From an uncultured Alphaproteobacteria bacterium (lineage in GTDB: Bacteria > Pseudomonadota > Alphaproteobacteria > Rs-D84), in assembly GCA_934232895.1 (NCBI GenBank), contig CAKQGH010000006.1, positions 138 to 64,137 on the forward strand: a DNA stretch of 64,000 bases, in the 5' to 3' direction. The notes below the pieces were generated by a model. That model saw only the letters and a list, made by a program, of their open reading frames with translations. It ran no database searches and was not told the DNA's origin. Below, one piece after another: positions 5,730 through 37,752 of the stretch. Both the position numbers and the translations under genes were made by a program. The stretch's first letter is position 1; the number at the start of each line of letters is the position of its first letter.

Positions 5730-6200
5730 CTATATCAAAAATGCCATTGTTATTAAAGCCAAAATTATGCCGGTGATAAAGAACGGTGCAAACGGAATAT
5801 ATTTCTGGTGTTTGGCGGCGGCCCACACGGCGCCGGTCACACATGCCACAATCAACGCCAGTGATACGCCCTGGACCCCGGCCCACACACCGCCGGTTGC
5901 AATCAGTTTGATATCGCCCATGCCAATTGGGGTGCTGGCATCTGGATTTTTCCAGCGACGCACCACATCAAATACAAAACCGGTTCCGGCCGCCAATGCA
6001 TATCCAAACGCCGCACCAATTGCCGCACCGCGCGGTCCAACCGGCCAAACGAACCAATTTGTTATCAACAATCCAATCAGCATCAATGGCCACAGAAACG
6101 CATCGGGTATAATACGGCGGCGCAAATCGGCCCGCGAAATTTGCCACGCGCACCACAATGCAATGCCCAGTAAAATAATGAAAAAGATTTGCCAAATCAT
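5730..6200 (-). CDS. A24-family prepilin peptidase (CpaA-like), 156 aa
   Basis: MIWQIFFIILLGIALWCAWQISRADLRRRIIPD...GMGDIKLIATGGVWAG carries the two Asp motifs typical of type IV prepilin peptidases. SD GGGGGA is present. The 326-aa track ORF is an antisense artefact upstream of 6200. Confidence 0.8.
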   Translation of the reverse strand: MIWQIFFIILLGIALWCAWQISRADLRRRIIPDAFLWPLMLIGLLITNWFVWPVGPRGAAIGAAFGYALAAGTGFVFDVVRRWKNPDASTPIGMGDIKLIATGGVWAGVQGVSLALIVACVTGAVWAAAKHQKYIPFAPFFITGIILALITMAFLI

Positions 6201-6276
6201 ATTTTTCCCCCTTGCCTTTCGATTCGGAACTGTGATAGAATTATACCATAAAAAGTACAACAGAGGTTGATATAAA

Positions 6277-9951: not shown

Positions 9952-10177
9952 TCTCCTTATGCTGATACAGATTTATAAACGGTGGTATTTTATAACACAA
10001 TTTGCAGAAAATCAATCAAATCTGGGAATTCATACCAATATTTTTTATGCGCGCCGCGTGGTACAATTACACCATGGCAACACAAACAAACTCTTTCACC
10101 ATCGCACGATACATATTGCTGGGGCTGGGGATTTTAATTGTCTTGGCAATTTTATTTTGGATATTCTGACGCCACCC

Positions 10178-10330
10178 ATACGGACGGTTAAATTTTTGGT
10201 CGCCGTAGACAGGAATGGCTGCGCCCACCTGGGCACATTCGCTGACGCGAACCGGCATACTGCCGTCTGCCTTGTGGCCTGCGGTTCAAACCTGCTGCCC
10301 CGCAGGTTCGATTCTGGTCACCACAAAAAT
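10178..10330. pseudogene. Degenerate tRNA-derived fragments
   Basis: 10178-10240 (CCATACGGACGGTTAAATTTTTGGTCGCCGTAGACAGGAATGGCTGCG) is a decayed copy of the terminator plus 3' half of the adjacent tRNA-Pro. 10290-10327 holds two T-arm-like strings (GCGGTTCAAACCTGC, GCAGGTTCGATTCTGG). No complete cloverleaf can be drawn. Confidence 0.4.
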
Positions 10331-10359
10331 TTAACCGTCCGTATGGACGGTTTAATTTT
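10331..10359 (-). terminator. Rho-independent terminator of tRNA-Pro
   Basis: On the minus strand: AAACCGTCC-ATA-CGGACGGTT followed by AAATTTTT. Confidence 0.55.
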
Positions 10360-10436
10360 TGGTCGGGGTGACAGGAATCGAACCTGCGACCCCTTGCACC
10401 CCATGCAAGTACTCTACCAGGCTGAGCTACACCCCG
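10360..10436 (-). tRNA. tRNA-Pro (anticodon GGG), 77 nt with encoded CCA
   Basis: Reverse complement is CGGGGTG-TA-GCTC-AGCCTGGTA-GAGT-A-CTTGC-ATGGGGT-GCAAG-GGGTC-GCAGG-TTCGATT-CCTGT-CACCCCG-A-CCA. This is a full cloverleaf with U33, anticodon GGG and G37. Confidence 0.9.
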
Positions 10437-10974: not shown

Positions 10975-11465
10975 GGAGAGGCACACGCAAGTGGACGGGG
11001 CGGGTTTTATTTAGAGAGCAAATCGCAGAGAGCAGAGAGCAATGAAGTGCGCCATTCGGCGCACTTTTTTCATTCCCGTTGCAATCCAAAATCCCCTTCG
11101 CTAAGCGAAGGGGTGGCACGAAGTGCCGGGGTAGTGGTAAATATAGCCCCGCGGGGCAATGGTCCCCGACCTTCGTCGGGGTGACGGTTTGTTCCCTGTG
11201 CTCTGCAATACCGTCACGTGCAAGTTCCCCTCCGGTGGAGGGGTGGCCGCAGGCCGGGGTGGTCTTGAAAGCGCGTAATGTTGTACGAAGTTTCAAATAA
11301 AAAGACAACCTCCCCGCTACGCGGGACTCCTCCACAGGAGGAGAACTTGCATCGTTCAAGTGAATAATAAGTTTCCCGCTGGCGCTTCGTGCCACCACGA
11401 CTCGGGCCCCGCGGAATTGATAAATTCCGTGGGGGGTTCCTGGAGGGGAATTAAGGTGGGGTGGT
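10975..11465. repeat. Gene-free mosaic of palindromic repeat modules
   Basis: Contains a GAGAGCA-array arm (11013-11046) and a copy of the GGGTGGCACGAAGTGCCGGGGTAGTGG module (11093-11185). It also contains a 155-bp module (11222-11377, also at 26771-26925 and 48012-48128) and the hairpin GGGCCCCGCGGAATTGATAAATTCCGTGGGG (11403-11445). Track ORFs here are artefacts. Confidence 0.75.
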
Positions 11466-22484: not shown

Positions 22485-23477
22485 ATGCAAGCAAATACTG
22501 AACGATTTTTGGACCCAAATATCCCAGACGAAATGGCGGCGTCTATCCGTCCGCATGCGTTGTCGGATTTTATTGGACATGATGCCCTGAAACAAAACCT
22601 GTCGGTGTTTATCAATGGCGCAAAATCGCGGGGCGAGGCAATGGACCATGTTCTGTTATACGGTCCCCCGGGATTGGGTAAAACAACACTGGCGCACATT
22701 GTGGCGAATGAATTGGGTACGAATTTTCGCGCTACATCGGCCCCAATGTTGACCAAACAAGGCGACCTGGCGGCGATTTTGACCGCATTGGAACCGATGG
22801 ATGTGTTGTTTATTGATGAAATTCACCGTTTGCCAACCGCCATTGAAGAGGTTTTATATTCCGCAATGGAGGATTTCAAGCTGGACATTATGCTGGGCGA
22901 AGGCCCGTCGGCCAAAAGTGTTCGCATTGACCTGCCCCCGTTTACATTGGTTGGGGCGACGACGCGCACGGGGTTGTTGTCGAACCCATTGCGTGACCGT
23001 TTTGGAATTGATTTGCGGTTGACTTTTTATTCGCCGGACGATTTGGCAAAAATTATTGTGCGCAGTGCGAATATATTGGGTACACCAATCGATGCCGATG
23101 CGGCATTGACACTGGCGCGCAGTGCGCGTGGCACACCCCGTATTGCGAACCGATTGCTGAAACGCGCGCGTGATTTTGCGGGTGCACTGGGGCGTGATGA
23201 AATTTCGCCCGACACAATTAAAACCACCCTGTTTCAATTGCATATTGACGGGTGCGGGTTGGACGAAATAGACCGTGAATATATGACGACCATTGTTCGG
23301 CACTATGCGGGTGGCCCGGTTGGTATTGAAAACCTGGCGGCGGCATTGTCGGAACCGGCGGACACTATCGAAGATGTGATTGAACCGTATCTGATGCAAA
23401 TGGGCTTTGTCCAGCGTACGCCGCGCGGCCGCGTTATTACGGATGCGGGGTATAAACACCTGGGGTTGGAGAAATAA
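22485..23477 (+). CDS. ruvB: Holliday junction DNA helicase RuvB
   Basis: Walker [10 protein letters not shown], Walker [10 protein letters not shown], sensor and winged-helix regions. 330 aa. Confidence 0.95.
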
Positions 23478-23481
23478 TCCT

Positions 23482-23865
23482 ATGTCAAACATTCATAAAT
23501 TTCCGTTCGCCATTGCATACGCGGACACGGATGCGGGCGGGATTGTATATCACGGCCGGTATATCGAAATTGCCGAGCGTGCGCGTATGAATTGGCTGCA
23601 CGGCATGGCGGCGACCGACGGCGATGTGGGCTTTGTTATTCGTGAATTGAACATTAAATATATTCGGCCATTGAAATTGGGCGATGAAATTATGGTTGAA
23701 TCCACCGTCACGCATGTGGGTGCGGCGTCACTGTCGCTGGAACAAAAGTTCGTGCGTGATGGGGAAATTTATGCTATACTGAATGGGACGGCGGCATACA
23801 TTGGTGGCGATATGCACCCAAAACGCATTCCCAACCAGATTTTGCAGAAAATAACCGCAGAATAG
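23482..23865 (+). CDS. ybgC: Tol-Pal-associated acyl-CoA thioesterase (YbgC, 4HBT fold)
   Basis: Start at MSNIHKFPFAIAYADTDAGGIVYHGRYIEIAERAR. The YxDTDxxGxVYHxxY motif is present, and the gene lies between ruvB and tolQ. Confidence 0.85.
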   Translation: MSNIHKFPFAIAYADTDAGGIVYHGRYIEIAERARMNWLHGMAATDGDVGFVIRELNIKYIRPLKLGDEIMVESTVTHVGAASLSLEQKFVRDGEIYAILNGTAAYIGGDMHPKRIPNQILQKITAE

Positions 23866-23890: not shown

Positions 23891-24391
23891 ATGGAAACAA
23901 CAAGCAGTTTTTCGCTGGCAAACCTGTTTACGGGCGATTTGATGACATTGTTTATATCGGTCGTTCTGGTGATTGGCAGCATTATGTCGTGGGCAATTAT
24001 TATCGAAAAAATCCGCATGTGGCACTATGCGAAAAAGAACCCGGTTAAAATTAAGCCGACCGACAATCTGGATTTGATTGTTGACCGCTTGACGCGACCG
24101 TTCGAGCGGAATCTGTGGTTTTTGTCCATGGTGTCGTATGTTGCGCCGTTTATCGGTCTGTTTGGCACAATTTGGGGCGTTATGGATTCGTTTTCGTCAA
24201 TTGGTGTGAACCAGTCTGTATCCATTGGCGTTGTTGCACCGGGTTTGGCAACCGCATTGGGTACAACGGCATTGGGGCTGATTGCGGCGGTTCCGGCGGC
24301 GATTGCATATCAATATTTTATTAAAAAGGTCGACACCCTGTACGACGATTTGGATGACGCGCGCCGTGAAATGCGGACCGCACGCAAATAA
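23891..24391 (+). CDS. tolQ: TolQ (MotA/TolQ/ExbB proton-channel family), short 166-aa form
   Basis: Three TM segments. APFIGLFGTIWGVMDSF and GLATALGTTALGLIAAVPAAIAYQYF are the family signatures. Confidence 0.85.
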   Translation: METTSSFSLANLFTGDLMTLFISVVLVIGSIMSWAIIIEKIRMWHYAKKNPVKIKPTDNLDLIVDRLTRPFERNLWFLSMVSYVAPFIGLFGTIWGVMDSFSSIGVNQSVSIGVVAPGLATALGTTALGLIAAVPAAIAYQYFIKKVDTLYDDLDDARREMRTARK

Positions 24392-24402
24392 AGGAAATTG
24401 CC

Positions 24403-24804
24403 ATGTCGCGCAGAAGACAAAGAAATTCAGACGCCGCAATTTCGTTGACGCCAATGATTGACATTATGACGGTGCTGTTGGCGGTGTTTATGGTGACCAC
24501 GCCGATGATGACCACGGGCATTGATTTGGATTTGCCGAATGCCGGGCACACTACATTGACCGGGAATGACCACGCGATTCAAGTCAGTGTTGATGCATCG
24601 GGGCGGTACTATATTGGCGAAATGCAAATGTCCCGGGACGAAGTGGTCAAACGCGCAATTGCTATGCGCGGCGAAAACCCCCAGTTGACCATTATGATAA
24701 ATGGTGACCGTCACGCGGATTATGGCGCGGTAATGTCGGTTATGGGCAAATTAAAGGACGCCGGTTTTCAGCGCGTTGGTCTGCGCACCCAGTTGGATAA
24801 ATAA
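24403..24804 (+). CDS. tolR: TolR (ExbD/TolR family)
   Basis: ISLTPMIDIMTVLLAVFMVTTP with the conserved Asp in the TM helix. 133 aa. Confidence 0.85.
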   Translation: MSRRRQRNSDAAISLTPMIDIMTVLLAVFMVTTPMMTTGIDLDLPNAGHTTLTGNDHAIQVSVDASGRYYIGEMQMSRDEVVKRAIAMRGENPQLTIMINGDRHADYGAVMSVMGKLKDAGFQRVGLRTQLDK

Positions 24805-24834
24805 AAGTTCAAAGTTCAGAGTTCAAAGTTCAAA
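24803..24834. repeat. Inverted-repeat arm (AAGTTCA heptamer array) of four-helix-bundle cassette 2
   Basis: 24804-24830 AAAGTTCAAAGTTCAGAGTTCAAAGTT is the perfect reverse complement of 25209-25235 (27 bp). Confidence 0.9.
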
Positions 24835-24846
24835 CGGGGGACACCG

Positions 24847-25230
24847 ATGAAAAACAATGTAGCAATGAAGAAAAGTGAAGCGTTTGCACTGAGAGTGATA
24901 AAATTATATAATCATCTGACGGAAATTAAAAAGGAGTATGTGTTATCAAAACAAATTTTGCGGTCTGGTACAAGTATTGGTGCAAATTTGGCCGAGGCGG
25001 AGTGTGCAATAACTAAAAAAGATTTTTTGGCCAAGGTCTATATAGCGCTGAAAGAATGTGCAGAAACCCAATATTGGTTGCGTCTGTTGAAAAATTCAAA
25101 ATATTTGACCGCAACAGAATATGCTAGCGTGTACAAGGATTGTAATGAAATTACAAGGATTTTGATGGCAACAACAAAAACAATAAATTTCAGGGATTCC
25201 GAGGACAAAACTTTGAACTCTGAACTTTGA
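24847..25230 (+). CDS. Four-helix-bundle protein (23S rRNA intervening-sequence protein / Avd-like family), 127 aa
   Basis: MKKSEAFALRVIKLYNHL...ILRSGTSIGANLAEAECAITKKDFLAKVYIALKECAETQYWLRLL. It has its own SD (GGGGGA) inside the loop. The last 22 nt lie in the 3' stem arm. Confidence 0.85.
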   Translation: MKNNVAMKKSEAFALRVIKLYNHLTEIKKEYVLSKQILRSGTSIGANLAEAECAITKKDFLAKVYIALKECAETQYWLRLLKNSKYLTATEYASVYKDCNEITRILMATTKTINFRDSEDKTLNSEL

Positions 25231-25242
25231 ACTTTGAACTTT
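25207..25242. repeat. Inverted-repeat arm (TTTGAAC heptamer array) of cassette 2
   Basis: 25209-25235 AACTTTGAACTCTGAACTTTGAACTTT pairs with 24804-24830. It ends 4 nt before the tolA ATG. Confidence 0.9.
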
Positions 25243-25245: not shown

Positions 25246-26013
25246 ATGAAATGCAAGTTTGATATTTTTAAGTCTGAAAATTTATTGATGTCTGTGATGG
25301 GGCATCTGGTTGTGCTGGCGATTATGGCGACATCGTTCGTTGTGTTGGCCAACCGGACCAAACTGGTCGCGCCCGACCGAATTCAGATTTATGAAATCGA
25401 CCTGAACGCGGTGCGTGTTTCGGGCGATGAAACGATTTTATATAATGTAAATGCGGACGCCGCGCCAATACAGCCCGGAAAACAGGCCGAACCCACCCCC
25501 ACGCCAGAGCCTGCGCCCGCCCCGGCGGATGAACCGCAACCGATAGAGACGCCGTCGCTGGTGGATGAACCCGCACCCGTGCCAGAAAAGAAGCCCGAAC
25601 CCGAAAAATCCGTCGACACCCCGGCCCCAGACGACACGCCCGCCCCGCGCAAGAAAACGGTTGTTCGCGTCAATCGCCAGGTTGTATCCCTGGACAGAAC
25701 ATTGACCGTGTCGGTGGTTGATGCGCTGCGTGTGGCAATGACACGGTGTTGGGCCATTGATACGAACCATCCCGGTATTGGGGATATCCGCGCGGTGGCG
25801 CATTTGACCATGCGGCGCAATGGCACGGTGCGTGATGTGTGGTTTGAATCGGCCGCGCGCGAAAATACCGACCCAGCATTTGCGTATGTTTTGGGTACAA
25901 TTCGCAATGCGATAAACACCTGCCAGCCGTTCCGTATGTTGCCTGTGAATGAATTTTCCAAGTGGGAAAAAATACAATTGACCTTTTACCCAACCCAGGG
26001 CAAAGTCATGTAA
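25246..26013 (+). CDS. tolA: TolA-like cell-envelope integrity protein (N-terminal TM, Pro/Glu-rich linker, TolA/TonB-type C-domain)
   Basis: ATG at 25246 (MKCKFDIF...MGHLVVLAIMATSFVVLA). PTPTPEPAPAPADEPQP linker. C-terminal ...RCWAID...AVAHLTMRRNGTV...AINTCQPFRMLP...KIQLTFYP. The track start 25234 is a TTG inside the repeat arm. Confidence 0.75.
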   Translation: MKCKFDIFKSENLLMSVMGHLVVLAIMATSFVVLANRTKLVAPDRIQIYEIDLNAVRVSGDETILYNVNADAAPIQPGKQAEPTPTPEPAPAPADEPQPIETPSLVDEPAPVPEKKPEPEKSVDTPAPDDTPAPRKKTVVRVNRQVVSLDRTLTVSVVDALRVAMTRCWAIDTNHPGIGDIRAVAHLTMRRNGTVRDVWFESAARENTDPAFAYVLGTIRNAINTCQPFRMLPVNEFSKWEKIQLTFYPTQGKVM

Positions 26014-26037
26014 AAACGGGGCCCCGCCCCGTTTTTT
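26012..26037 (+). terminator. Rho-independent terminator after tolA
   Basis: AAAAACGGGGC-CCC-GCCCCGTTTTTT. Confidence 0.65.
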
Positions 26038-26335
26038 ATGAAAGAGAGCAAAGAGCATCCGTCTCCGCTGGCGCTCCGCCGCGACAAGGAGAGCAGGAGC
26101 AATGATTGTGCTCGCATTTGCTCGCAACACCATATACCTGGATCCCGGTGTCAAGCACCGGGATGACACCTATGAAAAGATTCGTAACCAAGACCTAAAC
26201 TACGTTCATAAAAAAAAATCAGTATTCCGCCTTTGTCATCCCGTGGCTTGTCCGGACCCCGCAAAATCGTCAGATTTTGTGGGTGATGTCCTCGGGAACC
26301 AGGTGAATATATGTGCGCGGAACGCGCCTACCTTA

Positions 26336-26508
26336 TTGTCATCCCCGCGCAGGCGGGGATAGGGTCTTGGAAATTACTCTCGTTCATTGTTGTACGATGT
26401 TGGTAAAATGGCGGGGACCAATATTGCCGTACACCGCGATATTCTATGTCTGGCTCGTTGCCACTCGCACTGTATGGTCCCTATTTCCTGCCTACGCAGG
26501 AACGACAA
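26336..26508 (+). mobile_element. MITE-like element copy 2 (uninterrupted)
   Basis: TTGTCATCCCCGCGCAGGCGGGGATAGGGTC...GGTCCCTATTTCCTGCCTACGCAGGAACGACAA. Colinear with 827-1037 and 47726-47900. Confidence 0.7.
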
Positions 26509-26951
26509 AAGAGCTATAGTCTCTGTCATTGCGAGCGGAGCGTGGCAATCCATAAAAAACGACTACCCTGCCGGGCGTGTGCCCGGCACCCCTTCTGGCC
26601 AGAAGGGGACTTAACTGCACCACCATCGCGGGGCGAATTCCCCTTCGCTGGCGAAGGGGTGGCACAAAGTGTCGGGGTAGTGGTAAATAAGTCCCTGCGG
26701 GGCAATGGTGACCCTCCTGCGCCGGCATGACGTTTTTTTGTGCTGTGTCCCTGTATCCCCATCGCGGAGCAAGTTCCCCTCCGGTGGAGGGGTGGCCGCC
26801 AGGACGGGGTGGTCTTGAGAGTGCACAATGTGGAATAAATGTAAGACAAAAGACCACCTCCCCGCTGCGCGGTACTCCTCCACAGGAGGAGAACTTGCAT
26901 CGTTCGAGTGAATAATAAGTTTCCCCCGGCACTACCAGGTCTCCCCTCCTC

Positions 26952-27164
26952 TTGTCATTCCTGCTCCGGGCCCCGCGGAATTGATAAATTCCGTGGGTGG
27001 GCAAAGGCAGGAATAGGGTCCATACAGTGCGAGTGACAACGAGCCAAACACAGAATGTTGCGGAATACGGTAATATTGGTATACGCCACCTTTTACCAAA
27101 TATTGTGCAACAACAAACAGAAGTAATTTTCAAGACCCTATTCCCGCCTGCGCGGGAATGACAA
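26952..27164 (-). mobile_element. MITE-like element copy 3 (inverted orientation) with a 42-nt hairpin insertion at 26965-27006
   Basis: The core is the reverse complement of the copy-1/2/4 core. The insertion sits in the loop of the opposite terminal hairpin compared with copy 1. Confidence 0.7.
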
Positions 27165-27516
27165 TGGAAAAATATCGTTTTTATTTTATGAACATAGTTC
27201 TCTTTTATGTTTCTTATGCCGTCACCCCGCCCTGGGCCCCACGAAATTGAAAATTTCGTGGGTGGTACTAGGTCGGGGTCTATTGCCCCGCAGGGACAAA
27301 AAGACGACACCCCGCACGCTACTGCGTGCACCCCTCTGGCCAGATGGGTTTGGTCTTTTCCATCGTGGTGGGGGCAAAATAACTGTATCACTCTATCACT
27401 TGCTCGCTTTTTCACTTTTCCGGTTCCCCTGCCCCGTGGTGATTGGAAATGTTGGAGTTGGACGTACATAATTGTCACTGGCGAAATCTTTTTTGTTTGT
27501 ATATACACATTTTTTC

Positions 27517-27546
27517 TTGCGTCGATTGTGGATTTTTTTCTACCAT
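27517..27546 (+). promoter_or_regulatory. Promoter candidate of giant gene 1 (TTGCGT-18 nt-TACCAT), homologous to 48510-48539
   Basis: The block TTGTATATACACA-N5-TCTTGCG-N-GTGG-N-T(6-7)-CTA..AT is conserved upstream of giants 1 and 3. A T7 tract lies in the spacer (27533-27539). Confidence 0.35.
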
Positions 27547-27567
27547 AAACATAAAAGAGAGGAAGTC

Positions 27568-30500
27568 ATGACAAAGAAACGCGGTTTTCTGGGATTTTTT
27601 GCATATTTATTCGTTGCAATGTTTTTTGCAACTGGGGCATTCGCGGCCAGCGAATTGTACGAGGATTGTCCGGTGCCAGATGAAAATTCTGTTGCCGCAG
27701 GCTTTTGGAATAATGTTGCAGAGCCTAATTTCGGTGGCGAACCGTTGGGCTTTTCGGGCAGTGCCGCGGACGCTATTGGCGAGGGCTTTGAACCGTATGT
27801 TATAAACCCGCATCGTGTGGAGGTATCGGAAGAAACAGGCATTACAAATGGTGTTGGCAATTGTGTTGCGGTTATATGGTATATGTCCGACCATGGTATG
27901 TTTTATCGTTTTGTGCAATACAGCGAGAATGCAGAGTTATATGACCACGCCCCAACATTAGAACCATATTCCAAAATACCGTTCGGGTGGATTACGACCG
28001 CACCCGGGTATTATCTGGAAATGCCCATATATGGCGACTATTATGCAGAAGACGCTGAAATCAAAGATCCAATTTTTGCCGCTATTCCGTATCAAAGTTA
28101 TAATTACCAAAACTATAAGTATTATCCGTTCCGCACAAATACCCTGTGTACCCAGGGATCGTATTGTAATTCCGGTGTGACGGATCTGTGGGATTGGGAT
28201 GGCTATGCCACAGGCGAAGGCACATCCACCAAGGGAATTGAACAATGCGATGGCGGATGGCCATCTGCACCCGGTGCGACCGAATGTGATGAAAGTGGAA
28301 ATTATATCCAATTTGATTGTGTTGATAATCAAAATGGCAATGAAAGAAGTGGTGTCAATGTTGATTTTGCAAATGGATATTCGTTTAGTCGGATGCGCGA
28401 CGACAATGTGCACATGGTATGTGCGGCCGGTGGTTGGAACAATGAAAACGGCGATTTCAGTACCCCCGATGACATACAGTGTATTTTGATTGAACCGACA
28501 ACCAAAGAAGTCATAGACGCCAAAGGTCAGGGTTTGTGTAGCATAGATCGGTCCGGTGATTATGAAAATCATTATGTTATGGAGTGGAAGGGTTCTGATT
28601 TATACATAAAATGCCGATTGGCGACCGAAGAAGAAGATCTGAGCGACGGTTCCAGATTGCACGTGGGCGATGTAAGGTGCGAGTATTTTGATGAAAACAA
28701 CAGCGAATCCAAGGTTTACAAGTCGTATAATATTTCATACGATTTGAATGGCGGCACGGCGAATAATCCGGCCAATCCAAAGCGCGAGATATCGGCTGTC
28801 ATCAGCCATGATGCCACTGAATGGACGGTGTACTATGAACCAATCGGTGACCAAGAATGTTATGAACCGTTTTCATACGATTATGATTTGGGCAAGTGCG
28901 TTACGGGGCATGGTGGCGAATATGATTTGTGCAATGGTGCAAATGCCGAATGTGATCCATTTATTCCGTTGCTGGGCCCAAACGATGACGATAATAAACA
29001 GCTGACATTCCGTTGCTGGCACAATATGGCCGACACAAACAATCCCGAATCGTGCCTTTATGATGATTTGGATGTGGGGTCTGATGCCGCTCGTGGTGAA
29101 GAACAATACCCATTTTTGGAAAGGGTATTTGGAACATCGGGCTATATAAATGTTCGTGCGATATGGGACCAATATTCGTGGCTGTGCGAGGCCGGTACAT
29201 ATTACAAGGCGAATACTGGTGTTGATACATGTACGACATGTCCCGCGGGATCGTATTGCCCAGATGACAGACTTTACAGTACTGGCACAGTCGATGATGG
29301 TATTATCAAATGTTCCGCCGGCACAACCAGCGAGGCCGGTTCAAAATCTTGCACAGCAATTACTTACAAAGTGACCTTGGACAAGCAAAATGGTACCGGG
29401 GGTACGGATGCGTATTGGTATAAATATAATTCCAGCAAGACATGTTATTATTTTGCGGATGCAAATTTGACCAAATGTATTGACGGCAGCAATGGTCAAA
29501 ATATTACCATTCCAATCCGCACCGGATATACATTTGACGGGTATTATACCGGCACGAACGGTACTGGTACGCAATATGTGAATGCCAGTGGTTTGACAGT
29601 AAATAACCTGTATAAAACGACTGGCGACCGCACATTGTACGCCAAATGGAAACCCAATACCATCAAGGTGACATTGGATTCTGATGGTGCGACAAGTTCA
29701 GGCACCAAGGCGTATTGGTATCAGTATAACACAAACAACAAATGCTATTATTACTCGGATGCTGCGTTGACCACTTGTATGGGTGGCACAACAACAAACC
29801 AAAAAATAGATACATTACCAAGTAAAAATGGGTACGCGTTTGGTGGTTATTACACTGGTAAAAACGGAACTGGAAAACAGTATATCACCGCGTCCGGCTA
29901 TGCCACGGGCAGTATTGTTGATTCCGTATCATCGGATATAACATTGTATGCGAAATGGGACCTGGTGACATACACAATTGAATACAATGTAAACGGTGGA
30001 ACAATGCCGTCCAGCGGTGTTGTGACAGAATATACCGTTGAAACCGACAGTTTTGAACTGCCCCGGCCAACACACACCAAGGCAAGATTCTGGGGCTGGA
30101 GAAACAAAGCAGCATGGGGTGCGGTTGTTGCCGATAATGTTGTCAAAAAAGGCTCGTATGGGAATTTGGAATTGACCGCGGCATATAACATTGATTGCGA
30201 ACCTGGGAAATATTTTGATAAAACAACCAAGTCATGCGCCGAATGTCCATCTGGTGGCTTTTACTGCGAAGGCGGCAGTTTTGATTACAACGCCACCGAA
30301 AACAAGGGACTTGGCTTTTGCCCAGAACCAGAGGCATCGTTCTTTGAGGAACGCGTCAACGTCGTTGATGATGGCGAGAACATAACAGGCGGTCCGGACT
30401 TGGTGACCCAATGGATGCGTAAAAATTGGGGCGTGCCAGAATTTGAAATAGTGGAATACGCCGTCGAAGATTCTCGTTATGGATTAAGCAGTGTTAACCA

Positions 30501-33500
30501 GTGCCAATATGCATTGCTGTATGATGTCACAATGGCAAAATGGCAAGAAAACGGTTATAATGCAAAACCCCAATTGTTCGAAATATGGCAATATGATTCC
30601 GACGCTAATGAATATACCGCGGTTGTGCAATCTGGGTGGTTGTCGACCATTCCTGGGTATTATTTGAGGAACCCAATCAAGGGATCGTGCACAGACGAAG
30701 GTTTCCTAAGACCGCACTGGGGTAAACAGCCGTATACCGAATTGGAAATTTGCCCGGCGGGTTCATATTGCCCCGGGAACGATAGCAAAGACGAGGTTTA
30801 TGAACCTGAATGCGGCAGCCCCGATGACAGCGATATATTGACCGAATTTGGCCGCGTGACCTGCCCCCGTGGCGGCACTGTCGAGGGCGCAATCGGCGAA
30901 GACCAATGCGATGGCAGTTTTGATTACAGAATTTGTTTTTATGATGAAAACGCCGACGGCGGCATTGGTGGTATAGCGGGGTTTAACCCAGAAAAATGTA
31001 CCAATAAAATAATTGAAAGCTGTGACGAATGCACTGACACAGCAACAGATATTAGTGGCGCATGTGTTGTTGACAGCAGCGAAGGTGATTACACATTTGA
31101 TGATGAGGGGGGTAACGCTTACACAATCTGTTTGATTCATGATGAAAATAATCCCAATGGTGTTCCGGGATATAGGTACAATTGTGATATTGATGCCCAA
31201 CAGGAGGTCCATGGTCCGCGTTGTCAATATGATTTGATTACGTATACACTGACCTATAATGCAAACGGGGGTGCAATAACCGATTTGGCAAATGTGCCGA
31301 CAAAATATACCGTCATTGATTCTTTGCCAACCGTGCCCGATGCCACGCGTGATGGGTATGAATTACTGGGCTGGTTAACTGAAAGTGGCGACACATTGCA
31401 GCCCGGTGAACAATGGACGCCACTTGATTACATGGGTGATAATGCGGATGCCCAGGTTATCAGTCTGACGGCACAGTGGGAAGAATTGATTACATGTTTG
31501 CCAGGGCGCTATTTGCCGGCGGGCGAAACCGAGTGCAAAATATGCCCGGCGGGATATGGTTGCCCAACCGAAAATATGACATACCGCAAGAACGCAACAC
31601 AGGACCAGGGTAAAGCCCCATGTCAGTACACGACATACAGTGATGGCACAGATGGGTTCTGTAACACATGCGCAGAAGGTTCATTCAGCGAATACGATAT
31701 GGCAACCGCGTGCACACCCTGCGGGGCGGGCAGAACGAACAGCGGTGGCGGCATATGCAAGGGCTATTGCAGTAACAGCGACAACGTGGCGTCATGGAAA
31801 ACGCCAACATGGATGACTGGTAATTATGTGGACAATTATTGTGCAATCGCGTCATGTACCGAATTGTATGAATTGCAATCTGATGGGAAAAAGTGTATTG
31901 GACGCGTGTTCAAGGCCACATTGGATAACGATGGCGCCACAACCGCCGGTACCGCCGCATTCTGGTATCGGTATAAAACCAGCGGCGTGATGTACGCTGA
32001 TGCCGATCTGAAAACGCCACTGGGGGGGGTAAAATACAAGATTACCGTCCCGGTCAAAACGAACTATGTATTTGGTGGGTATTATACCCAGAAGAATGGT
32101 GCCGGAACCCAGGTTGTTGACGCCGAAGGTGTAATTGCTAACTATACGGCAAACACATTTGGTGCCGATACGACACTGTACGCACAATGGACGCCGGTGA
32201 CGGTGGATTGTGCGGCGGGGCAATATTTGCCAGCGGCCAAGGTCACATGCGCATCGTGCCCGGCGGGATCCCGTTGCCCAAATGCGGCGACATATTCGTT
32301 CTCGGAAACGGCGGACCAAGGCGCAATCAAATGCAACATAGGTACATTTGCAACCGGTGGCGCGAAATCGTGCACCACCTGTGCCGAAGGTTCAATTACC
32401 TCCAACAGCGGTTCCTATCGTTGTACTGCATGCACCAAGGGTAAAACCACGGCGGGGAATGTGCGTTCCGCATGCGACGCGACATGCCAGAATTCTGATA
32501 TAACCGTGTCATGGCTGGCGCCATCGTGGAATAACAATACCGTGACGAATCTGTGTGCGGCGGCGACATGTAAATCTGGTGCCGTGTTGGCAAATAACGG
32601 GTGCTATCATTTGGTGCGTGTGACATTGGATGCCCAGGGCGGCCGCGCCGGCATACCCGCGTTCTATTATGCGTACCAGAATTATTATGATGGCAGCTAT
32701 TACAAGGATGAAAAACTGACCACCGAGGTCGCGCCGGGTGATTATATCCCGTCGCGCACCGGATATGAATTCGGTGGATATTGGACCGAGAAAAATGGCG
32801 GCGGGCACGAGGCCATTCAATCGTTTGGTGACATAGACCAAGATTTGTACAAGGATGAAAGTGAAAACTTCACATTGTATGCCAAATGGACGGCCAAGGA
32901 AATCACCTGTGCGGCGGGGCAGTATTTGCCGGCGGGTGTCGAGGATTGCAAACCGTGCACCGCGGGTAATTCGTGCGCCGGGGGTACATTTACATTCTCG
33001 GCCACGGCGGACCAAGGACAGACACCGTGTGCCGCGGGCCGTTTCAGCGGCGCGGGCGCGAAAGTATGCACCGCGTGTGGCATCGGATCATACACAAACG
33101 AAACCGGCGCAACGGCGTGCGTGCCATGTCAAAATGGCAAAACCACATCTGGGACCGGGCGCACATCTTGCGACGCATCGTGCGATATGGAACATGTGGC
33201 GGGATGGGCTACGGCCGAATGGTTTACGAATAATACCACCAGCACATGCGTACCAGAGGCGTGCAACGATGGATATTTTGTTTCGCCAGACACATTGGAA
33301 TGTGCCGAAAACAGTTTTGTGGCAAATTTTGATATTGGTAATGGCGGATGGGAATTGTTGAGCGGCGGTCAACCAGACAAATACATTGCTAACCTGAAAT
33401 ACGGCGAAATGGTGCCGGATTTGTGGATGGACACAATGCCAAAATTGGATGGATACCTGTTCATGGGATTCTTTACCGAACCAGAGGGCCAAGGCGATAT

Positions 33501-36500
33501 GTATTGGAATTCCGTCGGGCGCGGTATGCGCGAATGGGAATTTTCCGACCCCGAGATACAGTTCTATGCGTATTATGAAAAAGCCGAAGACACATTGTAC
33601 TATGTCTGTACCGAGTATGACGAAAACGGTGAAATTAACCAAGACGCCTGTTCAACATACCAGGTGACAAACTGTGCGTGCGACAACCAAAACCCGTATG
33701 ACAGTTCGGCCCAGCTTGGAAATTGCAAGATGTACGACCAAACAACGGTTGATTTTGGCGATACGCGTGGGCGCAATCAAAATGTATGCGTCATTTTGGA
33801 TGATGACGAAGGTACGCACCCGCGCCAGGATTTGAAATGGACCTGTATCCCGGACGAGACAAACAAATATGTGTACTGCTATTATGTGCCGCGTGAATAC
33901 ACGATTATATTCGATACCGAGGCGGGCTCGGCCGAGGAAGCCCAGGTTGGTGACAGTGGTCAACCAATAATGTATGTTAAATGGACATACGGGGATGGTC
34001 CGATTACATTGCCGTCGGCGCGCAAACCAGCCGAGGATTTGTATGTCGACCGTTGGAACCTGGCCGATGTGTACGATTTGGCACCTGGCGATGAATTTGA
34101 TCCGGCGAATGCGGATTATCTGGATTACGCAACTAAATTCGTGTTCAAATTTACGCCGTTTTCATGGACCAGCAAAATGATTGCATGCGATGCTGGGTAT
34201 TATTTGCCCGCGGGGGGCGAACAATGTGAAGTCTGCCCATCTGGATCGTATTGCCCGGGTGGCACATACGACCGTGGTGCACCAAATGATGCTGGTGCGG
34301 AAACATGCCCCGGCGGTCTGCGTGATGTGAACAGCAAGTATTTGATGTCAGCGGGCGATTTATCGGAAATATATTCCCCGGGTGTTGGCAGCTTGGAGGT
34401 TGCTGAAAACATCACGCCGGCTGGATCGAAAACAATCACGGATTGCCGAGCCGTTGCAAGGTATTGGGATGACGAGGCGTTCCATCGCCTGATTGAAATC
34501 AGAACGTACAATGCCGATACCGAAAAGTATTCAGACCGCGTGGCCGGTGGGTGGTATCAAACATCGAGCACTGGTGTGTATATGTCTGGGTTCAACAGTT
34601 GTGCGCTGGTTGTCGGTGCCAGTGAAATCAGCAATGGAAACTGGGCATTGTATACCAATTTGGAGGAGTGTCCCGCGGGTTCGTATTGTCCGGCGGCGTC
34701 TGGGGGGCAATGCTCGTCCAGCAAGCCGGCGCCATCAACGGTTGGTATAACCCAATGCCCGATGGGAACCTACAACAGCGGTACAATGGCCAATAATATT
34801 TCACAATGTAATGTTTGCACCGATGGAAAAACATCGGCGGCGGGCGCGGCATCGTGCAACATTTCGTGCACCAATTCAATCGGCGCGGGCACATGGAAAA
34901 CACCAACATTATCCAATGGTGTGGTATCCAACCTGTGCGTGATTGATACCTGTGCGACCGGGTATGTCAAGGTTGGCGATGCATGCGAACGCATTGTGAC
35001 ATTGACACTGGATGCGAATGGTGGTTCGACCCCGGCCGTGACCAAGGTGTATATGATTTCGCGTGGCGAGGATGCATACGAAGGCTTCTTCAAGGATTAT
35101 GCCCTGACCCAGCATGTCACATGCGACGATTTGAAATCCGAACGCACCGGATACACATTCGTGGCCTGGGGTGAATTGATGTATGTATCTGCTGCTGGTT
35201 CATGTGAGTTTGACACTAACGATTTCTTCAAAAATGAAGATGATATGACCATTCAGGCCACATGGCGTGCGAATGAATACACCGTCACATTCAATACAAA
35301 CAATGGTACGGGTGGTGCGTCGACCGCAACCGTTGTGTACGACGCAACAATGGCAAAATTGACATCGTTGCCAACGCGCACTGGGTACCAGTTTGCCGGA
35401 TACTATGATGCGGCGACCGGTGGCACAATGTATTATGGTGTCGATGGTACGGCCGCACGCAAGTGGGACAAGGCCGCGAACACAACCCTGTATGCGCAAT
35501 GGGTGGTCGAAGGCGAATATACCATCGGATACGATTTGGATGGTGGTACGAACGCTGCGTCTAACCCAAGAACATATACGGTTGAAACGGAAACCATTAC
35601 CTTGGCCGACCCGACCAAGACCGGATACACGTTCGGCGGATGGTATTCTGAGGCCGCGTTCGCAAACAAAGTGACGCAAATTGCCAAGGGCTCGACCGGG
35701 AACAAGATGCTGTATGCAAAATGGACCCCGATTAAATACACCATCAGATATAATGCAAATGGTGGTACGGGTACCGTTGCGGATACCGTATGTACATACG
35801 ATGCGGATTGCACAATTGCCGCAAACGGGTTTACCAATGGCACCAAACGGTTCGTTGCGTGGTCAAAAGACACAACCGCACAGAGTGGCGTCTATACCGC
35901 GGGCCAAGTGGTCAAGAATCTGAGTGCGAATGCATCGACGATAACCATGTATGCAATATGGGCCGACTGTGCCGCGTGTGCGGCGGGTGCCGGTGCGAAT
36001 TGCCAACTGACCGCGCCACTGGGTGTGTGCAAATACACAACATCGTGCCGTGCGGGGTATGACACGCCGGTAAATGCGGGCAAATATAACCCATCGTGCA
36101 GTGTGATTCCATACAAAATCACATATAACCTGAACGGTGGCACAAACCCGGCGGGGGCGAAAACACAATACACTGTGGAAACGGCGGATTACACCCTGCC
36201 CACCCCCACCAAGAAAGGTTATGATTTCGGTGGCTGGTTCACAAACGATGCATTGACTGGCACCGCGGTGACCAAGATTGCACGCGGGTCAACCGGCGCC
36301 AAAACATTCTGGGCCAAATTTACCGCAATGAAGATATATTGCAACCCGGGTTATTATCTGGCGGCCGGTGCAACGGAATGCACTGCGGTATGTCCGGCGG
36401 GGTCTATGTGCGCCGGTGACGATGTCACATACACTGGCGCCGAACAAGGCCGTCGCGTATGTCCGGCCGGCACGTTCAGCCAGGCGGGTGCGAACACATG

Positions 36501-37752
36501 TACCAAGTGTCTGTCTGGCGCGTTCAGTGCGACCGATGGTGCAACCGCATGTACGCCATGTGCCGCGGGCACGACCAACGACGGATGGGGCAACACGAAA
36601 TGCGACATCCAATGCGCTAATGGCGCGCATGTGGCAAAGTGGATGGAATCCACATGGAATGTAGGTACCGGTGATATGGGCCAGGTTGTTGCCAGTGAAT
36701 GCGAAATTGAATCATGTGCCACGGGGTGGTTGCTGGGCGACAATGAATGCGTAGAACGCATAATGTGTGTACCAGGTAAATATTACGATGGAACAAAACT
36801 GGTGCAATGCCCGGCCGGGTCATATTGCCCGGGTGGTGGCGAAACAACGCCGGGCGTGCCGTCATGCGCGACATCGTGCGCAACGGTTGGCGATGGTTCG
36901 TACAATGTGTCGGCGCCTGGCGCGTCCAGCACCGCCGGATGCACACATAAATGCGACGCATACCCAATCGCGGGCGGCATGGCAAAACCGAAATTGGAAT
37001 ATGCGCCATATCCGACCCAGTGCGAATTTACCGGCGTGTCCGACACCGGCAACCCGTGTGACATTGTTGACGGGCGTTGTGTGGAAACATCGTGCAACGG
37101 TAATTATGAAATGATAAATGGCCGTTGCGAACCATGCGGACGTGATTTCGCACTCAGTTATAATATGACCGCGGGCAACTGTATCGTGACCAAATGCGAA
37201 ATTGGTTATCATCCGGCGGGCGATGCTTGTGCGGAAAATACGCGCGAATGCACAATACCGGGCGCCATATCGGCGGTCCAGGAATGGAACGAAAAAACAA
37301 AATCGTTCGGCGCATGTACCGTGACCGAATGTGACGATGGGTTCCATATTGCATCGAATAAATGTGTATCTGATACCCAGGCATGCACCGTGACAAACGG
37401 CGTCGGCACCCAGGAGTGGAACCATATATCAAACACTTGGGATGCGTGCGTCGCAACCGAATGTGCGGCCGGATATACCAACGACAAATCTGACAGTGCG
37501 GAACCAACACGCGAATGTGGACCGTGCCGCAACGGATATGGCGTTGATGGTACCCGCGTGGCCAGCAGTTATATCCGTGGATGTGAAATCGCATCGTGCA
37601 TGTACCAGGGCGAAATGTATAACCTGGAAAATAACGAATGCGTTCCGATTTGCAGTGTCGCGGGGTATTCTGATGAAACCGGTACCATGAAATGGAACCC
37701 GGCGACCAAGAAATGCGACCGCACCTGCGCGGATGGATACCGCATGTGGTAA
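27568..37752 (+). CDS. Giant secreted Cys-rich mosaic protein 1 (3,394 aa): ~14 Listeria-Bacteroides (Flg_new) repeats, ephrin-receptor-like/furin-like CxxC repeats, EGF-like tail
   Basis: Start at ATG 27568 after AAAGAGAGGAAG. Signal peptide MTKKRGFLGFFAYLFVAMFFATGAFA. Repeats of the type YTVTFNTNNGTGG...PTRTGYQFAGYY...TLYAQW and C-AAGQYLPA..C..C.AG..C.GG...C..G.F...GA..C..C. The track ORF start 27472 is a repeat-encoded extension. Confidence 0.9.
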   Translation: MTKKRGFLGFFAYLFVAMFFATGAFAASELYEDCPVPDENSVAAGFWNNVAEPNFGGEPLGFSGSAADAIGEGFEPYVINPHRVEVSEETGITNGVGNCVAVIWYMSDHGMFYRFVQYSENAELYDHAPTLEPYSKIPFGWITTAPGYYLEMPIYGDYYAEDAEIKDPIFAAIPYQSYNYQNYKYYPFRTNTLCTQGSYCNSGVTDLWDWDGYATGEGTSTKGIEQCDGGWPSAPGATECDESGNYIQFDCVDNQNGNERSGVNVDFANGYSFSRMRDDNVHMVCAAGGWNNENGDFSTPDDIQCILIEPTTKEVIDAKGQGLCSIDRSGDYENHYVMEWKGSDLYIKCRLATEEEDLSDGSRLHVGDVRCEYFDENNSESKVYKSYNISYDLNGGTANNPANPKREISAVISHDATEWTVYYEPIGDQECYEPFSYDYDLGKCVTGHGGEYDLCNGANAECDPFIPLLGPNDDDNKQLTFRCWHNMADTNNPESCLYDDLDVGSDAARGEEQYPFLERVFGTSGYINVRAIWDQYSWLCEAGTYYKANTGVDTCTTCPAGSYCPDDRLYSTGTVDDGIIKCSAGTTSEAGSKSCTAITYKVTLDKQNGTGGTDAYWYKYNSSKTCYYFADANLTKCIDGSNGQNITIPIRTGYTFDGYYTGTNGTGTQYVNASGLTVNNLYKTTGDRTLYAKWKPNTIKVTLDSDGATSSGTKAYWYQYNTNNKCYYYSDAALTTCMGGTTTNQKIDTLPSKNGYAFGGYYTGKNGTGKQYITASGYATGSIVDSVSSDITLYAKWDLVTYTIEYNVNGGTMPSSGVVTEYTVETDSFELPRPTHTKARFWGWRNKAAWGAVVADNVVKKGSYGNLELTAAYNIDCEPGKYFDKTTKSCAECPSGGFYCEGGSFDYNATENKGLGFCPEPEASFFEERVNVVDDGENITGGPDLVTQWMRKNWGVPEFEIVEYAVEDSRYGLSSVNQCQYALLYDVTMAKWQENGYNAKPQLFEIWQYDSDANEYTAVVQSGWLSTIPGYYLRNPIKGSCTDEGFLRPHWGKQPYTELEICPAGSYCPGNDSKDEVYEPECGSPDDSDILTEFGRVTCPRGGTVEGAIGEDQCDGSFDYRICFYDENADGGIGGIAGFNPEKCTNKIIESCDECTDTATDISGACVVDSSEGDYTFDDEGGNAYTICLIHDENNPNGVPGYRYNCDIDAQQEVHGPRCQYDLITYTLTYNANGGAITDLANVPTKYTVIDSLPTVPDATRDGYELLGWLTESGDTLQPGEQWTPLDYMGDNADAQVISLTAQWEELITCLPGRYLPAGETECKICPAGYGCPTENMTYRKNATQDQGKAPCQYTTYSDGTDGFCNTCAEGSFSEYDMATACTPCGAGRTNSGGGICKGYCSNSDNVASWKTPTWMTGNYVDNYCAIASCTELYELQSDGKKCIGRVFKATLDNDGATTAGTAAFWYRYKTSGVMYADADLKTPLGGVKYKITVPVKTNYVFGGYYTQKNGAGTQVVDAEGVIANYTANTFGADTTLYAQWTPVTVDCAAGQYLPAAKVTCASCPAGSRCPNAATYSFSETADQGAIKCNIGTFATGGAKSCTTCAEGSITSNSGSYRCTACTKGKTTAGNVRSACDATCQNSDITVSWLAPSWNNNTVTNLCAAATCKSGAVLANNGCYHLVRVTLDAQGGRAGIPAFYYAYQNYYDGSYYKDEKLTTEVAPGDYIPSRTGYEFGGYWTEKNGGGHEAIQSFGDIDQDLYKDESENFTLYAKWTAKEITCAAGQYLPAGVEDCKPCTAGNSCAGGTFTFSATADQGQTPCAAGRFSGAGAKVCTACGIGSYTNETGATACVPCQNGKTTSGTGRTSCDASCDMEHVAGWATAEWFTNNTTSTCVPEACNDGYFVSPDTLECAENSFVANFDIGNGGWELLSGGQPDKYIANLKYGEMVPDLWMDTMPKLDGYLFMGFFTEPEGQGDMYWNSVGRGMREWEFSDPEIQFYAYYEKAEDTLYYVCTEYDENGEINQDACSTYQVTNCACDNQNPYDSSAQLGNCKMYDQTTVDFGDTRGRNQNVCVILDDDEGTHPRQDLKWTCIPDETNKYVYCYYVPREYTIIFDTEAGSAEEAQVGDSGQPIMYVKWTYGDGPITLPSARKPAEDLYVDRWNLADVYDLAPGDEFDPANADYLDYATKFVFKFTPFSWTSKMIACDAGYYLPAGGEQCEVCPSGSYCPGGTYDRGAPNDAGAETCPGGLRDVNSKYLMSAGDLSEIYSPGVGSLEVAENITPAGSKTITDCRAVARYWDDEAFHRLIEIRTYNADTEKYSDRVAGGWYQTSSTGVYMSGFNSCALVVGASEISNGNWALYTNLEECPAGSYCPAASGGQCSSSKPAPSTVGITQCPMGTYNSGTMANNISQCNVCTDGKTSAAGAASCNISCTNSIGAGTWKTPTLSNGVVSNLCVIDTCATGYVKVGDACERIVTLTLDANGGSTPAVTKVYMISRGEDAYEGFFKDYALTQHVTCDDLKSERTGYTFVAWGELMYVSAAGSCEFDTNDFFKNEDDMTIQATWRANEYTVTFNTNNGTGGASTATVVYDATMAKLTSLPTRTGYQFAGYYDAATGGTMYYGVDGTAARKWDKAANTTLYAQWVVEGEYTIGYDLDGGTNAASNPRTYTVETETITLADPTKTGYTFGGWYSEAAFANKVTQIAKGSTGNKMLYAKWTPIKYTIRYNANGGTGTVADTVCTYDADCTIAANGFTNGTKRFVAWSKDTTAQSGVYTAGQVVKNLSANASTITMYAIWADCAACAAGAGANCQLTAPLGVCKYTTSCRAGYDTPVNAGKYNPSCSVIPYKITYNLNGGTNPAGAKTQYTVETADYTLPTPTKKGYDFGGWFTNDALTGTAVTKIARGSTGAKTFWAKFTAMKIYCNPGYYLAAGATECTAVCPAGSMCAGDDVTYTGAEQGRRVCPAGTFSQAGANTCTKCLSGAFSATDGATACTPCAAGTTNDGWGNTKCDIQCANGAHVAKWMESTWNVGTGDMGQVVASECEIESCATGWLLGDNECVERIMCVPGKYYDGTKLVQCPAGSYCPGGGETTPGVPSCATSCATVGDGSYNVSAPGASSTAGCTHKCDAYPIAGGMAKPKLEYAPYPTQCEFTGVSDTGNPCDIVDGRCVETSCNGNYEMINGRCEPCGRDFALSYNMTAGNCIVTKCEIGYHPAGDACAENTRECTIPGAISAVQEWNEKTKSFGACTVTECDDGFHIASNKCVSDTQACTVTNGVGTQEWNHISNTWDACVATECAAGYTNDKSDSAEPTRECGPCRNGYGVDGTRVASSYIRGCEIASCMYQGEMYNLENNECVPICSVAGYSDETGTMKWNPATKKCDRTCADGYRMW

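Follow-up and report, generated by a model that had tools for sequence, protein, structure and literature searches.

An intervening-sequence-type cassette with a conserved four-helix-bundle gene at the tolR-tolA junction of a gut alphaproteobacterium

What is a small protein gene, enclosed by a perfect inverted repeat, doing between tolR and tolA? The question is raised by a 64,000-nt stretch of DNA, here called the window, from an uncultured Alphaproteobacteria bacterium of the lineage Rs-D84 (NCBI GenBank assembly GCA_934232895.1, contig CAKQGH010000006.1, positions 138 to 64,137 of the forward strand); all positions below without a locus number are positions in the window. An earlier note, made from the sequence alone, had proposed that a unit of hairpin and open reading frame (ORF), known from intervening sequences (IVSs) of 23S ribosomal RNA (rRNA), has colonised an mRNA operon at this site. 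The origin and purpose of bacterial rRNA IVSs, and of the S23p/four-helix-bundle (4HB) ORFs, have been open questions since the early 1990s. Here we report that the element is built like an ORF-bearing 23S IVS and is a real IVS-type cassette in an mRNA operon, and that the same hairpin and heptamer design flanks most relatives of its gene at ordinary operon junctions. The design was previously described only inside ribosomal RNA genes; a full-text literature search returned no description of PF05635/4HB genes with heptamer inverted repeats outside rRNA, although an earlier description is possible. The cassette consists of the following parts.

24804-24834, plus strand: 5' arm, about 4.4 tandem heptamers (AAAGTTC AAAGTTC AGAGTTC AAAGTTC AAA), recognised by inverted repeats, heptamer over-representation and conservation among orthologues
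24836-24841, plus strand: GGGGGA, a Shine-Dalgarno-like motif 5 nt before the 4HB ATG, read from the sequence, its function being presumed
24847-25230, plus strand: 127-aa 4HB gene, PF05635/TIGR02436, supported by the ORF, profile matches, a match to PDB 2rld and dN/dS
25209-25242, plus strand: 3' arm, about 5 tandem heptamers (AACTTTG AACTCTG AACTTTG AACTTTG AACTTT), complementary to the 5' arm

An inverted-repeat scan recovered the arms where the earlier note had described them, with 27 nt of 100% complementarity (24804-24830 and 25209-25235), 378 nt between them, and tandem AAGTTCA/GAGTTCA heptamers composing both; the pairing reaches 31 nt at 94% (24804-24834 and 25212-25242). The 13-mer AGTTCAAAGTTCA, with at most 2 mismatches, occurs 9 times in the window (expected 0.88), and 7 of these occurrences are in the two arms. 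By an arithmetic estimate, chance alone would give an inverted repeat of 27 perfect bp, both arms lying within 2.5 kb, about 1e-8 times in 64 kb. The predicted minimum-energy RNA fold (-115 kcal/mol, z = -4.4) has the entire cassette enclosed by the stem, and the arm duplex has a predicted energy of -40.9 kcal/mol, against about -8 kcal/mol for shuffled arms. The same cassette structure was found in at least 10 independent assemblies, which rules out an assembly artefact.

The borders of the cassette coincide closely with those of the host genes. The last base of the tolR stop codon (TAA, 24802-24804) is the first base of the 5' arm, just where the earlier note had let the cassette begin, and behind the last base of the heptamer array (25242) there remain 3 nt before the tolA-like ATG at 25246. 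Only 12 nt separate the 5' arm from the 4HB ATG, so there is no room for a promoter of the gene's own. The earlier note had placed the ORF and its Shine-Dalgarno motif in the loop; the 127-aa ORF and the GGGGGA motif are there, but the final 22 nt of the ORF, stop included, are inside the 3' arm, where they encode ...TLNSEL and the stop codon, 15 nt before the tolA-like ATG. The GC content of the cassette is 36%, compared with 48-54% in the flanking genes.

The encoded protein was matched to PF05635 with 102.8 bits (cut-off 33.8) over residues 3-107 of 127 and to TIGR02436 with 110.3 bits (cut-off 24). By sequence comparison its closest solved-structure relative is PDB 2rld (E 2.2e-31, residues 1-113), which is titled only 'Uncharacterized protein'; a four-helix-bundle fold of the cassette protein is therefore predicted from family membership. 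The assignment to a 23S-IVS/Avd family thus stands in its first half, whereas both models of Avd, the accessory protein of diversity-generating retroelements (DGRs), remained below their cut-offs (PF22296 bAvd, 21.9 bits against 40; NF033474, 21.1 against 80). The protein had no PADLOC and no PHROG match, and a defence or phage function, which we also considered, finds no support from either collection.

The genes around the cassette, on which its reading as an operon insert depends, are these.

22485-23477, plus strand: ruvB, the upstream neighbour of the tol cluster
23482-23865, plus strand: ybgC-like acyl-CoA thioesterase gene, the first tol-cluster gene after ruvB (4HBT/4HBT_2, E 3e-16; the gene call of L001 maps here)
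23891-24391, plus strand: tolQ, MotA/TolQ/ExbB family (PF01618, 1.4e-25; best NCBIfam match TIGR02796, below the equivalog cut-off)
24403-24804, plus strand: tolR, ExbD/TolR family (PF02472, 7e-28; best NCBIfam match TIGR02801, 1.8e-32, below the equivalog cut-off)
25246-26013, plus strand: tolA-like gene with an N-terminal membrane anchor and a Pro-rich linker (position and a weak TolA C-terminal match, E 0.009)
26017-26037, plus strand: terminator-like GC hairpin (CGGGG-CCCCG-CCCCG) followed by T6, 4 nt past the tolA-like stop, read from the sequence and not flagged by a consensus scan

The flanking genes have the gene order and the family assignments of a Tol-Pal operon, and the order ybgC-tolQ-tolR-tolA is kept across 80 species. 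The position between tolR and tolA is as the earlier note gave it, but the downstream gene is called only tolA-like, because its support is mainly position, the proline-rich linker and the weak C-terminal match. No Shine-Dalgarno motif is visible before its ATG. The hairpin at 26017-26037 probably ends the operon. Consensus scans of the plus strand inside the operon gave no intrinsic terminator and no more promoters than expected by chance, and the idea of a cassette promoter or an internal terminator was accordingly dropped. An Rfam search of the window found no rRNA gene, only the RNase P RNA and a tRNA.

That the cassette arrived by insertion follows from the same junction in relatives. TolR was scanned in one genome per species over 80 species of gut Alphaproteobacteria (Candidatus Enterousia and relatives), 78 of which were measurable; the TolR of one of them (L010; loci and proteins are given here by our own L and P numbers) is 100% identical to that of the window and marks the source species. 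The tolR-tolA spacer is at most 18 nt in 70 of the 78 species, with a median of 6 nt, and in 9 species the tolR stop and the tolA start overlap. This short or overlapping junction is the ancestral, translationally coupled state. Longer spacers are, among the 78 species, confined to the window's own clade: 439-442 nt with the 4HB cassette in L010, L012 and L015; 473 nt with a different cassette, carrying a DUF559 gene, in L011 and L014; and 26, 40 and 40 nt with solo heptamers of the 5'-arm type (AGAGTGC AACGTTC AGAGTGC AGAGTTC) in L016, L018 and L019. The 11-nt spacer of L017 holds the relic GTTCAATGTTCAAG. A separate look-up found an orthologous cassette at the same site in one more distant species (L008/L009, 73% aa identity), whose sister species L034 has the site empty. 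The cassette is thus an insertion into the tolR-tolA junction in the ancestor of a small clade of gut Alphaproteobacteria, and since most relatives have a spacer of at most 18 nt it is not ancestral to the family. The comparison with relatives that lack the insert, which the earlier note had suggested, therefore supports its hairpin-plus-ORF unit in an mRNA operon, as does the GC content. Between filled and empty sites no target-site duplication is visible. L008 has a further 4HB gene at 40-417 (PF05635, 5e-30), immediately upstream of ruvB, and hence two cassettes within 3 kb.

The site has also been filled by something else. In the two sister species L011 and L014 a DUF559 gene (Vsr-like endonuclease fold, E 2e-27) occupies the junction at approximately 4400-4875, about 450 nt, inside its own GC-rich inverted repeat (TTCCCCTCCGTCGGAGGGG... 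and ...CCCCTCCGTTGGCGGGGAA). Before the tolA ATG of these loci stands GTGAACTTTATTATG, a relic of the 4HB 3' arm, which is kept there as GTGAACTTTATT. This relic, persisting beside the DUF559 cassette, points to replacement of the 4HB cassette by the DUF559 cassette, and the tolR-tolA junction has the look of a hot spot of cassette exchange.

The cassette protein is under strong purifying selection. Among orthologous cassettes the dN/dS of the 4HB gene is 0.05-0.06, against 0.01-0.03 for tolR, and from these comparable values we conclude that the protein is functional. Substitutions build up far more slowly in the arms than at synonymous sites. Between the window and L012, with a dS of 0.43, there are 2 differences in about 65 arm positions; L008 is so distant that its synonymous sites are saturated (pS 0.81), and still 23 nt of its 3' arm are the same as in the window; in six close assemblies the 3' arm shows no difference at all. 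No relative with the ORF and without the stem was seen among the filled sites examined; all six keep a strong stem, whose predicted energy is -26 kcal/mol in L008 and lies between -38 and -41 kcal/mol in the close clade.

The closest described counterpart is the 23S IVS of Coxiella, with a 28-bp terminal stem, RNase III cleavage mapped by rapid amplification of cDNA ends, and 2-3 tandem GACAGAT heptamers, variable in copy number between strains, before an S23p ORF that is decaying and apparently not translated (PMC4990558). IVSs encoding S23p have also been reported in 23S genes of Leptospira, Brucella and relatives of Xanthomonas, and the solved relatives Xcc0516/S23p form pentamers (PMC4990558). 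In anatomy the comparison made by the earlier note is borne out, down to the Coxiella stem and heptamers. Both kinds of element have a terminal stem of about 25-30 bp enclosing the ORF (27 bp and perfect in the window cassette), a PF05635-family protein in the loop, a similar length (about 440 nt here, 428-444 nt there), and tandem-heptamer termini whose copy number varies, here in the P0073 loci described below. They differ in location, which is helix 25 or 45 of 23S rRNA there and a protein-coding operon junction here, so the tol cassette, which lacks the defining 23S location, is not an rRNA IVS. A further difference is that the 4HB protein of the window is strongly selected and its loop offers a plausible Shine-Dalgarno motif, in contrast to the decaying ORF of Coxiella. 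RNase III excision, finally, was shown in Coxiella, whereas the tol cassette presents a substrate-like duplex known from its sequence.

A second cassette, built on the same plan from a different heptamer, lies on the minus strand of the window.

5246-5721, minus strand: second cassette, heptamer AGAGAGC/GCTCTCT (inverted repeat; PF05635, 2.5e-28)
5686-5721, minus strand: its 5' arm (inverted repeat)
5291-5689, or from 5710, minus strand: its 4HB ORF (PF05635)
5246-5281, minus strand: its 3' arm (inverted repeat)
5730-6710: Peptidase_A24 gene, a neighbour of the second cassette
4399-5304, minus strand: gene of a secreted protein, downstream of the second cassette

Its protein has 62% aa identity to the first, and its inverted repeat, 36 nt long and 86% matched, has a core of 21 perfect bp (predicted duplex energy -61 kcal/mol). 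The start codon of the secreted-protein gene sits within the end of the 4HB ORF, and the 3' arm, (GCTCTCT)n, encodes the hydrophobic signal-peptide core HCSLLSALCSLF of the secreted protein. Cassettes decay by deletion, and this is clearest here: L187 retains no more of the 4HB ORF than about its last 25 codons, behind which come the start codon and the signal peptide seen in the window; L185 has no 4HB ORF, and TCTCTGCTCTCTGCTCTCTGC still codes for SLLSALC; the more distant L189 has a 37-nt spacer and an unrelated signal peptide. For annotators this is a warning that some short intergenic heptamer arrays, and even signal peptides, can be the remains of cassettes.

Because the second cassette showed the same design with another heptamer, homologous loci were surveyed more widely: 80 metagenomic loci with homologues of 49-66% identity, 58 of them with a complete ORF and both flanks. 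The ORF-flanking inverted repeat exceeded the 95th percentile of shifted controls in 69% of the 58 loci, with a median score of 17 against 7 in the controls. Nearly all arms are tandem heptamer arrays whose unit differs by lineage (GAGTTAG, AATTAGG, TAGAGTT, AGTGAAT, AAGGTAA, AATTGAC, AAATCAC and others); of 61 flanks on each side, 38 upstream and 45 downstream were fitted best by a period of 7, as were none of 61 controls inside the ORF. Arms match within one cassette far better than across cassettes (median 21 against 9), and this amounts to large-scale covariation. A loose consensus, A-A-K-T-N-A-G with only 6% C, describes the 5'-arm units, and the Coxiella GACAGAT fits this consensus when rotated to AGATGAC; the strand asymmetry of the arms is fixed relative to the ORF. 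Many units hold TAG/TGA together with AGGAG-like motifs, and a role of the heptamers as frame-independent stops or Shine-Dalgarno sequences was considered; the AAGTTCA 5' arm of the window has neither motif, so this can be no general rule.

The neighbours of these genes are mostly on the same strand (upstream in 24 of 31 loci, downstream in 26 of 29), and in most co-oriented loci the 5' arm lies about 0-25 nt from the upstream stop. A 23S rRNA context was rejected for the homologues, as the 23S motif set was found in none of the 80 loci and no Rfam RNA family in the 20 tested. Among the contexts seen instead are a mod/res junction in a type III restriction-modification system, the DNA behind the coupling-protein gene of a type IV secretion system (T4SS), and a site directly after a terminator. 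Homologues at 60-70% identity occur in Alphaproteobacteria, Bacteroidota, Firmicutes and viral contigs, a range that implies horizontal spread; most of the 8 loci on viral contigs show heptamer arms, judged by eye without a score. At 50% identity the family falls into 9,548 clusters (E up to 1e-3).

Recent transposition was not seen. Exact-protein look-ups returned a single genomic context each for P0001 (24 contigs), P0073 (24) and P0038 (11), identical proteins thus always occupying the same site, and tblastn within the window gave only the 62% paralogue. The 'mobile selfish module' of the earlier note accordingly needs qualification, given a fixed site and a protein and arms under purifying selection. 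In the P0073 loci (L170-L179) an identical 4HB gene lies between mod and res of a type III restriction-modification system; between strains the flanking arrays differ by approximate multiples of 7 nt (14, 28, about 54 nt), complete arm-loop-arm heptamer hairpins without an ORF occur on both sides of the gene, and the upstream mod gene varies in length. In L106, from a 39%-GC organism, a cassette at 2456-2893 has arms almost identical to those of the window (CAGAGTTCAAAGTTCAGAGTTCAAAGTTCAAAT) around a protein of only 61% identity, and follows directly after an intrinsic terminator.

How, then, might the tol cassette work? The reading that we favour, and hold to be probable though by no means secure, is that of an IVS-type single-gene cassette inserted at tolR-tolA and acting at the RNA level. 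The cassette would be transcribed within the ybgC-tolQ-tolR-tolA mRNA; expression from the host transcript is suggested by the lack of room for a promoter and by the co-orientation of such cassettes with their neighbours. In the RNA the arms would pair into a stem of 27-31 bp that loops the 4HB message out. At the foot of this stem the tolR stop would meet the tolA-like start codon, rather as the stem of an rRNA IVS prolongs a native helix and so spares the host RNA. The analogy of the Coxiella 23S IVS makes the stem a probable substrate of RNase III, whose cut would leave tolQR, 4HB and tolA as separate segments. Translation of the 4HB protein would start from its own Shine-Dalgarno-like motif. 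Since the stop of the ORF lies in the 3' arm, at 15 nt from the tolA-like ATG, we propose that ribosomes finishing the ORF open the stem and can re-initiate on tolA, a relay that would replace the lost tolR-tolA coupling. Expression of tolA might then depend on the cassette arrangement; if it does, the host would for that reason keep both arms and ORF under purifying selection. In the long term, cassettes would be lost by deletion, leaving heptamer relics, or be replaced.

Several points weigh against this reading. RNase III cleavage, co-transcription and relay coupling are all steps that we infer. The stem carries a mismatch in other strains and in the sister species, seen as a single unpaired position in the duplex prediction, so a perfect stem is not required. 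In the wobble test, stem mismatches were 29 of the G:U type and 43 of the A:C type (p = 0.12); this is no RNA-specific signature, and it leaves room for a DNA-level role of the arms. Other cassettes vary in how far the downstream start lies from the 4HB stop (15, 44, 93-175 nt), so relay coupling can be no general rule.

The lack of a G:U excess belongs to the case for the best-surviving alternative, a mobile element at the DNA level, in which the heptamer arrays would be recombination ends that form a hairpin or cruciform and are recognised by the 4HB protein or by an enzyme acting in trans, the RNA stem being a by-product. The anatomy resembles terminal inverted repeats, arrays change their copy number in steps of 7 between strains, those of Coxiella included, and two hairpin-bounded cassettes, unrelated to each other, have used the same site. 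The spread of homologues over several phyla and viral contigs, and the nearly identical arms of L106 around a protein so much less similar, would also fit. Set against this are the absence of a transposase or recombinase and of a clear target-site duplication, the identical proteins (P0001, P0073, P0038) that stay at one site, and the two cassettes of the window, whose proteins are 62% identical and whose arms differ. Co-orientation with host genes, together with arm conservation in vertically inherited copies, would be unexpected if the arms served only transposition. On balance we regard such an element as unlikely, though well worth keeping in mind. The cassette shares with miniature inverted-repeat transposable elements (MITEs) and with repetitive extragenic palindromic (REP) sequences and bacterial interspersed mosaic elements (BIMEs) a small size, the lack of a transposase, inverted-repeat boundaries, intergenic position and transcription with host operons, but it carries a selected protein gene and has heptamer arms that differ between copies. 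Unlike a MITE it forms no multi-copy identical family in its genome, its paralogue in the window having 62% aa identity and different arms.

Selection on ORF and arms at a fixed locus, and retention of the cassette across species with dS up to saturation, could instead mean that it is a domesticated host regulator, no longer selfish, in which the stem, with or without the 4HB protein, tunes TolA against TolQR through RNase III-dependent mRNA decay. Host use does occur, as the 3' arm of the second cassette, co-opted as a signal peptide of the downstream gene, illustrates. RNase III sites between cistrons are known from T7 early mRNAs, rpsO-pnp and rnc-era; like them, the long duplex could separate cistrons and set their individual stability, but it differs in closing a 378-nt protein-coding loop and in having arrived by insertion. 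Most relatives do well without a cassette (70 of 78), it was repeatedly lost or replaced within the clade, and the same cassette type sits at type III mod/res, T4SS coupling-protein and terminator junctions, unrelated positions that argue against a tol-specific role. We rate a domesticated regulator as distinctly improbable.

Avd works with nucleic acid and a reverse transcriptase, and a further alternative is that the cassette is a DGR remnant whose ORF is an Avd accessory gene. The 4HB and Avd families are homologous (PMC10053308), bAvd (PDB 4DWL) belongs to a homologous four-helix-bundle fold family, and a weak Avd similarity was found (21.9 bits for PF22296, 21.1 bits for NF033474). These scores are far below the cut-offs of 40 and 80, no reverse transcriptase is encoded within about 2.5 kb of the cassette (the neighbours being ruvB, ybgC, tolQ, tolR and tolA), and heptamer arms are no described feature of DGRs. 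A repeat scan of the immediate region gave only short direct repeats at chance level, template and variable repeats not having been searched for specifically. With both Avd models below their cut-offs and no reverse transcriptase nearby, the cassette is no Avd/DGR module, and this scarcely tenable alternative is effectively refuted by scores and gene context. The least credible explanation of all, that an ordinary small gene is flanked by an inverted repeat through mere chance or faulty assembly, is refuted by the expectation of about 1e-8, by the many independent assemblies and by the recurrence of the design in dozens of unrelated loci.

Beyond the favoured reading of the tol cassette, an RNA-level IVS-type insertion, lies a broader proposal, which we put forward tentatively and think unlikely to hold as a whole. 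Heptamer-bracketed 4HB genes might form one widespread, unnamed class of elements that spread horizontally, phage contigs included, and settle where they are looped out of an RNA harmlessly, operon junctions being common sites and 23S rRNA a special case. A pentameric 4HB ring might recognise its own arrays, about 5 heptamers per arm and one per protomer, and direct their processing or copying; arms could be co-opted as coding sequence, such as signal peptides; and solo arrays of the TAACTGA and cyanobacterial types would be relics.

The cyanobacterial short tandemly repeated repetitive (STRR) heptamers are such tandem arrays of unexplained function. Tandem TAACTGA heptamers, likewise unexplained, have been described from marine Beggiatoaceae, Cyanobacteria and Bacteroidetes, with 169 direct sets and 1 inverted set (PMC4679880). 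Both resemble cassette arms in having 2-6 tandem heptamers, intergenic position, forward orientation and a scattered distribution across phyla, and in ending one to a few nt before start codons, as do the 3' arms and the solo relics. They differ in having been described as direct repeats without a link to 4HB genes. TAACTGA-type arrays might, by this resemblance, be related cassette relics.

Some other repeats and genes of the window were recorded on the way. Between the tolA terminator and a giant gene, 1.4 kb of non-coding DNA (26050-27500) holds GC-rich palindromic units (TTCCCCTCCGGTGGAGGGGTGGC, GTCATCCCCGCGCAGGCGGGGAT) and a nested inverted repeat (26335-26378 with 27122-27165, and 26417-26485 with 27012-27080). 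A second repeat-rich non-coding stretch (47400-48400) adjoins the RNase P RNA gene (47063-47389) and holds the unit families of the first stretch, with inverted repeats at 47550-47574 and 48262-48286 and at 47720-47752 and 47874-47906; CCCCTCCGGTGGAGGGGTGGC occurs at 48017, 26776 and 11227 (11227-11247). The repeats of the two stretches look like a REP- or MITE-like genome family resembling the arms of the DUF559 cassette. The giant gene, downstream of the first stretch, is a 3,426-aa ORF (27472-37752); its counterpart in L002 has a 2,755-aa product with matches to Flg_new and Ephrin_rec_like repeats, and the gene call varies in start and length among L001-L004. A perfect 23-bp inverted repeat with a 125-nt loop (10176-10198 and 10324-10346) stands immediately upstream of a tRNA-Pro gene (10360-10436, minus strand). 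ARAGORN called a 101-nt tRNA-Tyr at 51090-51190 on the minus strand, which Rfam did not report at its gathering threshold and which may be a false positive or an unusual tRNA.

For the biology of these elements, the general pattern of heptamer cassettes is of more value than the single cassette, which is itself a solid case. The rRNA IVSs may be one instance of a wider design found in several phyla and in viral contigs. The tolR-tolA locus would be a tractable place to study it, with a protein under selection, an expected tolA phenotype, and natural alleles in which the site is empty, holds a relic or has been refilled.

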